A stretch of DNA of 64,000 nt from a virus (lineage: Duplodnaviria; Heunggongvirae; Uroviricota; Caudoviricetes), in the IMG/VR virus record IMGVR_UViG_2877251553_000001, positions 1 through 64,000 of that record. One strand, given 5' to 3'. Shown here in pieces: positions 43,113-43,891 of the stretch. The notes under the pieces are model-generated. The model was not told where the DNA came from, did no database searches, and was given only the letters and a program-made list of their open reading frames with translations. The first letter of the stretch is position 1, and the number at the start of each line of letters is the position of its first letter. Position numbers and translations under genes: made by a program.

Positions 43113-43891
43113 TTAAAGACTCAAAATTAGGTGAGTAACGGACCGGGACATAGCTCCTTTTTTTCTTAATTCATCTGGTATTTTTTTTCCAAGATAAAGA
43201 TTTGCTATTTCAGGTGGGGCTTCTCGACCTTCAAAACCATAGCGCGAACTTTGTGTTGCCTCAAAGTCAGGATCCTCGTCCCAGTATTTCAACGAAGGGA
43301 AATTTTCACGTGTTGATTTGAGCCATTTATCAGCAATGAAAACCCCTCGAACGATCCCCCTTACAGTAGCAAGAATGATTTCTGCTTGGCTGGCGCGAGA
43401 GACATTAATGCGCCAGCTAAATCGAACCGCATCATAAAGCTCTGAATCCTTTGCACTTCTGTTAACGGATATCATTAATGCTTTATGATGAAATGTTATG
43501 GTTTCGGGCTGATATGTTGCTATCAACTCTTTGACATGCGCGGCGCCGAATTCATTGCTGCCAGCACCATTCATGATATTCGTTAACCCAGGGTAGGCAT
43601 CAATAAGTGCTGCTTCAACTTCGTACGCCGTCTTTTCATCAGTCATTCCGTGTCGATGGATGACATGGATAACTTCAAGTCCTGCTAACCTTATTTCTCT
43701 AATTTGCTTTAGCTTGTTGCTCAGTAACTCGTCATCATCAGTCGCTGCCACTTCACCGCGCATATGGGCAAATACGCGGTTACCTTTGCCTTTCCCTACA
43801 TAGAAGGTGCTTCCGTCCTCGGATCAATCAATCGGTATACATACCAGCCAAGGTGTTCAATTACTCCAGAAGGAAACTCAGTAATATCCAT
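43113..43891 (-). CDS. GIY-YIG nuclease-domain protein (~259 aa); -1 frameshift at a T-run near 43795
   Basis: Manual translation from ATG at 43891: [48 protein letters not shown]...; GIY...YIG-like motifs (YVYRL / FYVGKG), then R and E at expected spacing. Confidence 0.65.

Follow-up and report, generated by a model that had tools for sequence, protein, structure and literature searches.

The anti-phage protein PD-T4-3, since renamed CMoRE (Liu et al., Nat Commun 2026, PMC12923530), was found by functional selection, and a native-host knockout, its biochemistry and its crystal structures have been published (PMC12923530; 10.1101/2024.12.20.629700). It lowers the plating of T2, T4 and T6 by some five orders of magnitude, and it is regarded as a direct defence rather than an abortive infection system because cells survive at high multiplicity (PMC12923530). 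In an independent study, two T-even-like phages gained ground on the clinical isolate NILS69, which became more sensitive to them when PD-T4-3 was deleted, and K-12 given the cloned gene was shielded from four Tevenvirinae phages (10.1101/2024.12.20.629700). With Mg2+ or Mn2+ the purified protein degrades DNA containing 5hmC or glucosyl-5hmC and leaves unmodified and 5mC DNA uncut, and T4 with plain cytosine evades restriction; cleavage requires two modified cytosines and takes place at CN11/N9G with 2-nt 3' overhangs (PMC12923530). In vitro, both modified T4 DNA and Mu DNA carrying the Mom modification are degraded by a Capnocytophaga homologue with 48% identity (PMC12366544).

The crystal structures of CMoRE, 9U75 and 9U8D from Escherichia coli O157:H7 and 9U7U and 9U7Z from APEC O1, contain a GIY-YIG domain at the N-terminus, in which one more tyrosine gives a 'GIYxY-YIG' motif made up of Y17, Y19 and Y31, and a 15-residue acidic loop that covers the active site (PMC12923530). 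When the four acidic residues of this loop are neutralised, the enzyme cuts ordinary DNA and becomes toxic (PMC12923530). CMoRE is a tetramer, and its assembly, which involves a V92/L96 interface, is needed for defence (PMC12923530). The C-terminal domain, for which no homologue is detectable, binds 5hm-dCTP at Y127, with the 5hmC contacting the main chain (PMC12923530). The APEC O1 protein gives weaker defence when expressed from its native promoter (PMC12923530).

Relationship of the window gene to CMoRE

We analysed a 64,000-nucleotide stretch of DNA, here called the window, which carries a GIY-YIG gene on the minus strand near the right end of a lambdoid prophage. This gene is PD-T4-3/CMoRE, a characterised nuclease with published phage assays, biochemistry and crystal structures (PMC12923530). 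Among the functions offered in the original prediction, that of a 'new defence nuclease' is therefore right as to defence and wrong as to novelty, and the C-terminal region to which the prediction could assign no function corresponds to the published 5hmC/5ghmC-sensing domain. The copy in the window is in all likelihood an allele of this known single-gene system, with breaks in its reading frame that are best explained as under-called homopolymers.

Once the frame is repaired, as set out in the next section, the protein matches the PADLOC model PD-T4-3 (PDLC04031) over positions 1–256 of 256 with E = 7.6e-140, and residues 28–110 match the Pfam family PF22945, LEM-3_GIY-YIG, with E = 1.7e-14, above the model cut-off. 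A PDB sequence search returned exactly two sequences, both titled 'GIY-YIG domain-containing protein' and both aligning over residues 1–257: that of 9U75/9U8D (E = 5e-171) and that of 9U7U/9U7Z (E = 1.6e-150). At E <= 0.001, no chains other than those of CMoRE were found in this search. NCBIfam was found to hold no model for the CMoRE protein, and in PHROGs the protein falls in phrog_5356, a family of unknown function.

The residues singled out in CMoRE are in place: Y17, Y19, Y31, R39, D52-D53-D54-E55, R80, V92, L96 and Y127 are all present in the repaired protein. Y17, Y19, Y31 and R39 of the GIYxY-YIG motif are the same as in both crystallised proteins, and the acidic loop retains four consecutive negative residues, the window sequence D52-D53-D54-E55 corresponding to DDDD in O157:H7 and DDDE in APEC O1. 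In the C-terminal sensing domain, residues 110–257 align to 9U75 without gaps and Y127 is conserved.

The closest known system is the CMoRE of O157:H7 (9U75, 9U8D; PMC12923530), which shares with the window copy a length of 257 residues, the GIYxY-YIG motif, the acidic lid loop, the dimer-interface residues and Y127 of the sensor domain. The two are 97.3% identical and differ at seven positions, T51A, E55D, Q169K, I172V, N197H, S200T and L201M, of which the second sets E55 against D55 in the acidic loop. Each is a lone gene at its prophage's tail-fibre end; that of O157:H7 adjoins pinE/tfaE of an e14-like prophage, whereas the window gene, in a lambdoid prophage integrated at thrW, has an EcoRII-like R-M system beside it and, as read, is broken in frame. 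The APEC O1 protein (9U7U, 9U7Z) has the same architecture and fold family at 85.2% identity, and most of its 38 substitutions fall in the sensor domain.

Two further groups of proteins share some of these properties. No match to the PvuRts1I/AbaSI family of 5hmC-dependent type IV enzymes was found when the PDB was searched with the window protein. The enzymes of that family space their cuts in a similar way, relative to a pair of modified cytosines. Like CMoRE, PvuRts1I recognises both 5hmC and 5ghmC (PMC12923530, discussion), but the nuclease fold of CMoRE is GIY-YIG, and no sequence or structural homologue was found for its sensor domain (PMC12923530). The second group, the LEM-3/ANKLE1-type GIY-YIG proteins (PF22945), resembles the window protein in the N-terminal domain only and is the source of its RefSeq protein name. 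In eukaryotes, proteins of this type have different partner domains and roles.

Full-length homologues of CMoRE (37–45% identity, 97–99% coverage) also occur in lytic jumbo phages of Serratia, Pectobacterium, Pantoea, Klebsiella and Pseudomonas, for example in Serratia phage Moabite (NC_048792.1, 6406–7161) and Pseudomonas phage OBP (NC_016571.1, 158703–159449). Some have been labelled 'putative homing nuclease' by their depositors. In these phages the protein may serve as a weapon against competing phages with modified DNA.

From the 97.3%-identical O157:H7 protein we infer that the window allele would cleave 5hmC/5ghmC DNA and restrict T-even phages. It would do so as a tetramer made of two dimers, in which the C-terminal domain (approximately residues 120–257) would bind a flipped-out 5-hydroxymethyl- or glucosyl-hydroxymethyl-cytosine, and the N-terminal GIYxY-YIG domain (Y17, Y19, Y31 and R39) would then cut both strands at CN11/N9G, leaving 2-nt 3' overhangs, with Mg2+ or Mn2+. 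The acidic loop D52-D53-D54-E55, lying over the active site, is expected to exclude ordinary and 5mC DNA, so that host DNA, including that methylated by the adjacent Dcm-like enzyme, would be spared. The DNA of T2, T4 and T6 would be degraded directly, without abortive infection.

Gene model and nature of the frame breaks

The features of the locus are collected in Table 1. As originally predicted, the frame that starts at the minus-strand ATG at 43891 encodes a GIY-YIG core, a call borne out by the Pfam and PADLOC matches, and the ORF list misses the full gene owing to an interruption of this frame, so that only pieces of 31 and 216 residues are listed. The reference for frame repair was an intact E. 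coli allele, L001 6110–6883, aligned base by base. Three one-base gaps, each within a homopolymer, are the only differences between the two; the window gene is 771 nt long and becomes 774 nt (257 residues and a stop) when the three missing bases are put back. The resulting translation is identical to WP_000355482.1, the 257-residue product annotated in strain CFSAN064035 as 'LEM-3-like GIY-YIG domain-containing protein'.

Table 1. Features of the CMoRE locus in the window (positions in the window)
Feature	Position	Strand	Basis or remark
CMoRE / PD-T4-3 gene	43121..43891	-	Alignment to intact allele L001 6110-6883, WP_000355482.1
Frame break 1	43817..43818	-	GG vs GGG in intact alleles; codons 25-26 (R25/D26)
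Frame break 2	43145..43147	-	CCC vs CCCC in intact alleles; codon 249
Frame break 3	43123..43126	-	TTTT vs TTTTT in intact alleles; last sense codon and first base of TGA stop
N-terminal fragment as read, 31 aa	43796..43891	-	ORF list
ORF as read, 216 aa, start at internal Met44	43113..43763	-	ORF list
Hairpin and U-tract	43054..43101	-	Directly 3' of CMoRE stop; likely intrinsic terminator
Divergent intergenic region, CMoRE / methylase gene	43892..44297	.	Between the two genes
Dcm-like C5 cytosine methyltransferase of EcoRII-like R-M	44298..45730	+	L001 4270-5703; Pfam DNA_methylase, DNA_meth_N
EcoRII-like restriction endonuclease, intact	45765..46973	-	Pfam EcoRII-N, EcoRII-C; PDB 1NA6, E = 1.3e-242

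With these three gaps, the window as read holds no intact open reading frame for CMoRE. The first break splits the catalytic motif, leaving Y17 and Y19 on one side and Y31 and R39 on the other, and the two gaps near the 3' end, at 43145–43147 and 43123–43126, alter the final residues of the protein. The 216-residue ORF covers the acidic loop, what is left of the nuclease domain, and the sensor domain, and it ends in a false C-terminus. Here the gene model departs from the original prediction, which had envisaged a single gap in a T-run at 43790–43800 and a protein of about 259 residues with its stop at 43113: the base lacking at the first break is one G of a G-run, two further gaps follow, and the true stop, defined by the alignment to L001 6110–6883, is at 43121–43123, giving 257 residues and a different C-terminus.

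Other repairs of the first break were discarded. Addition of one T to the TT at 43804–43805 restores the frame, but the product is DPRTEAPFYVGKG, with five wrong residues (RTEAP, where the true sequence is RDGST), and the 844 E. coli records have GGG at 43817–43818. Loss of a C from a CC run, the repair of which gives DPEDGST, is ruled out by the alignment to the intact allele. The Pfam query carried this DPEDGST version, and the Pfam result is independent of that residue.

Beyond the stop codon, the minus-strand segment 43050–43125 folds with an energy of -23.6 kcal/mol (z = -3.55) and is followed by UUUUUCUUUUUU; this hairpin and U-tract probably end CMoRE transcription. A consensus terminator scan around the gene did not call the hairpin, and a promoter scan around the gene gave nothing above shuffle expectation.

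We consider it very likely that the three gaps in CMoRE are homopolymer under-calls in the assembly and not true mutations. Between 43000 and 47180 the window differs from L001 by zero substitutions and four 1-nt homopolymer contractions, the fourth of which, GGGG to GGG near 45537, breaks the Dcm-like methylase gene. Similar contractions are found at 9297, 10013, 22137, 24307 and 25380 in comparison with another close E. coli relative, and one lies at 41435 within an otherwise ordinary copy of IS2. No homopolymer expansions were found in the well-conserved alignments of the window with close E. coli relatives; all the indels are contractions, mostly of G/C runs. They split or fall in the terminase, portal, capsid, IS2 transposase, methylase and CMoRE genes, and it is because of them that several prophage structural genes appear split. 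Frameshifts that come without substitutions, run in one direction and are confined to homopolymers are the pattern of long-read consensus error, and it is this pattern that leads us to read the frame breaks as artefacts. Among the 844 E. coli records that contain the CMoRE region there is no 100% match, the best standing at 99.7% with the three gaps as the difference, and the gaps themselves were not found in other E. coli genomes among these records. The exact 216-residue product is recorded for one contig only, CP026825.1 of GCA_002949915.1.

The alternative is that CMoRE is truly dead here, the three homopolymer deletions being true mutations in a prophage that is a decaying remnant. As read, the gene is broken three times and yields no intact protein, many other prophage genes are split (terminase, portal, capsid, J and methylase), the tail-fibre gene has a genuine IS2 insertion, and with several IS elements in the window (CP026825.1) gene decay is possible in principle. 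Decay is nevertheless difficult to reconcile with four frameshifts and zero substitutions over 4.2 kb relative to L001, with indels in the well-conserved alignment that are all 1-nt homopolymer contractions, with a contraction inside a standard IS2 copy, and with gaps common to no other E. coli genome; we consider it improbable. It is still less likely that the frameshifts are real and that the 216-residue product, a remnant without the nuclease, keeps a role in binding 5hmC.

Prophage setting and the EcoRII-like neighbour

The window starts with proA and the tRNA-Thr gene (thrW, 1369–1444), which are followed by an integrase gene and the lambdoid prophage; attR is marked by a direct repeat, 48 nt or longer, of the thrW tRNA 3' end at 48643–48692. 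The genes at the right end are, in order, an IS2-interrupted tail-fibre gene, tfa, CMoRE, the Dcm-like methylase gene and the EcoRII homologue; attR follows after ~1.7 kb that is non-coding or relic. CMoRE thus has the position first ascribed to it, between tfa and attR, divergent from the Dcm-like gene and beside an R-M system.

The IS2 copy occupies approximately 40991–42320, and the halves of the tail-fibre gene correspond to the ORFs at 40374–40991 and 42281–42469. Unlike the point gaps, this insertion is a real lesion, and the prophage therefore probably lacks functional tail fibres. The tfa gene, as read, is itself split into overlapping plus-strand ORFs, 42469–42891 and 42533–43051; the break, near 42773, falls where the window also carries substitutions relative to the reference. 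A full-length match to Rfam IS009 (RF02111; 229.5 bits, E = 3.9e-57) at 42810–43008 (+) overlaps the 3' part of tfa, directly downstream of the CMoRE terminator and on the opposite strand. Directly after attR there is a second tyrosine integrase gene (48854–50068 region), with further mobile-element genes that include DUF6387, TOPRIM/DUF927, IS3 and antA/antB; this region looks like a second island in tandem at thrW.

At 47208–47234 (-), inside the thrW-integrated prophage, lie the last ~27 bases of ssrA (tmRNA), and this relic falls exactly where homology to the ssrA-integrated prophage of CFSAN064035 stops. The sequence suggests that the right-arm cargo block and this remnant of an old attachment site were swapped between prophages by recombination.

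The distribution of CMoRE was surveyed by megablast of window positions 43000–44000; of the 5,426 complete E. coli genomes searched, 839 contain the region, the best match being 99.7% over 1,004 bases as against 1,001 in the window. Genes of the R-M system accompany CMoRE in 244 of about 822 carrier genomes, and ~70% of carriers are without them; in O157:H7 and other strains CMoRE stands alone beyond pinE/tfaE of an e14-like prophage. The neighbours vary from genome to genome, as befits a single-gene system without an obligatory partner, and the EcoRII-like R-M system is an optional neighbour of CMoRE and not its partner. The two are compatible because CMoRE ignores 5mC. Copies of the EcoRII-like R-M system, ~80% identical, are also present on plasmids.

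In the 244 genomes that have all three genes, CMoRE, the methylase and the EcoRII-like endonuclease form a 3.9-kb block that is 99–100% conserved. It could be supposed that this block is a deliberately co-inherited, two-layer defence module, mobile between prophages as a unit. The ssrA attachment-site relic that travels with it inside the thrW prophage is consistent with such movement. If this were true, EcoRII would cleave CCWGG DNA lacking modification, hypermodified DNA, which EcoRII would miss, would be cleaved by CMoRE, and the 5mC made by the methylase would be tolerated by CMoRE. We think such a module rather unlikely.

Other functions considered

Neither of the other functions put forward in the original prediction has more than a negligible chance of being correct. 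The first is that of a homing endonuclease with a GIY-YIG domain, free-standing and similar in type to I-TevI or Seg, which would spread its own gene through cuts in a naive allele. In favour of this function one can cite a weak match to the homing-endonuclease family phrog_314 (E = 0.0022) and the depositor label carried by some of the jumbo-phage homologues. The full-length match, however, is to PD-T4-3/CMoRE, an enzyme that acts on modified DNA and has no strict sequence specificity; Pfam detected the GIY-YIG domain only and no known homing DNA-binding module; and the gene lies among cargo genes, not within or between conserved phage genes.

The second is that of a type II restriction enzyme of the GIY-YIG class (Eco29kI, Cfr42I or Hpy188I type) paired with the Dcm-like methylase, an idea to which the adjacent, divergently transcribed C5 methylase gene lends some colour. 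That methylase is already paired with the EcoRII homologue, however, and in ~70% of carrier genomes the GIY-YIG gene occurs without it. Moreover, the PDB search gave no type II GIY-YIG enzyme at E <= 0.001, and unmodified and 5mC DNA were uncut in the published assays (PMC12923530). A Vsr-like repair partner of the methylase was dropped as a candidate, the gene being mostly without the methylase across genomes and its substrate being known.

As CMoRE is already described, the locus has little value as a discovery, and its use lies in annotation and in the corrected gene model. The source assembly has approximately one homopolymer contraction per few kilobases, and scans based on open reading frames therefore miss or mis-size real genes, so any ORF-based finding in the window calls for a check for such contractions. 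Repair of a frameshift by eye may restore the frame at the wrong site and so produce a wrong motif, which comparison with an intact allele corrects. For the biology of these elements, the locus once again confirms that E. coli prophages have a site for defence cargo at their tail-fibre end.
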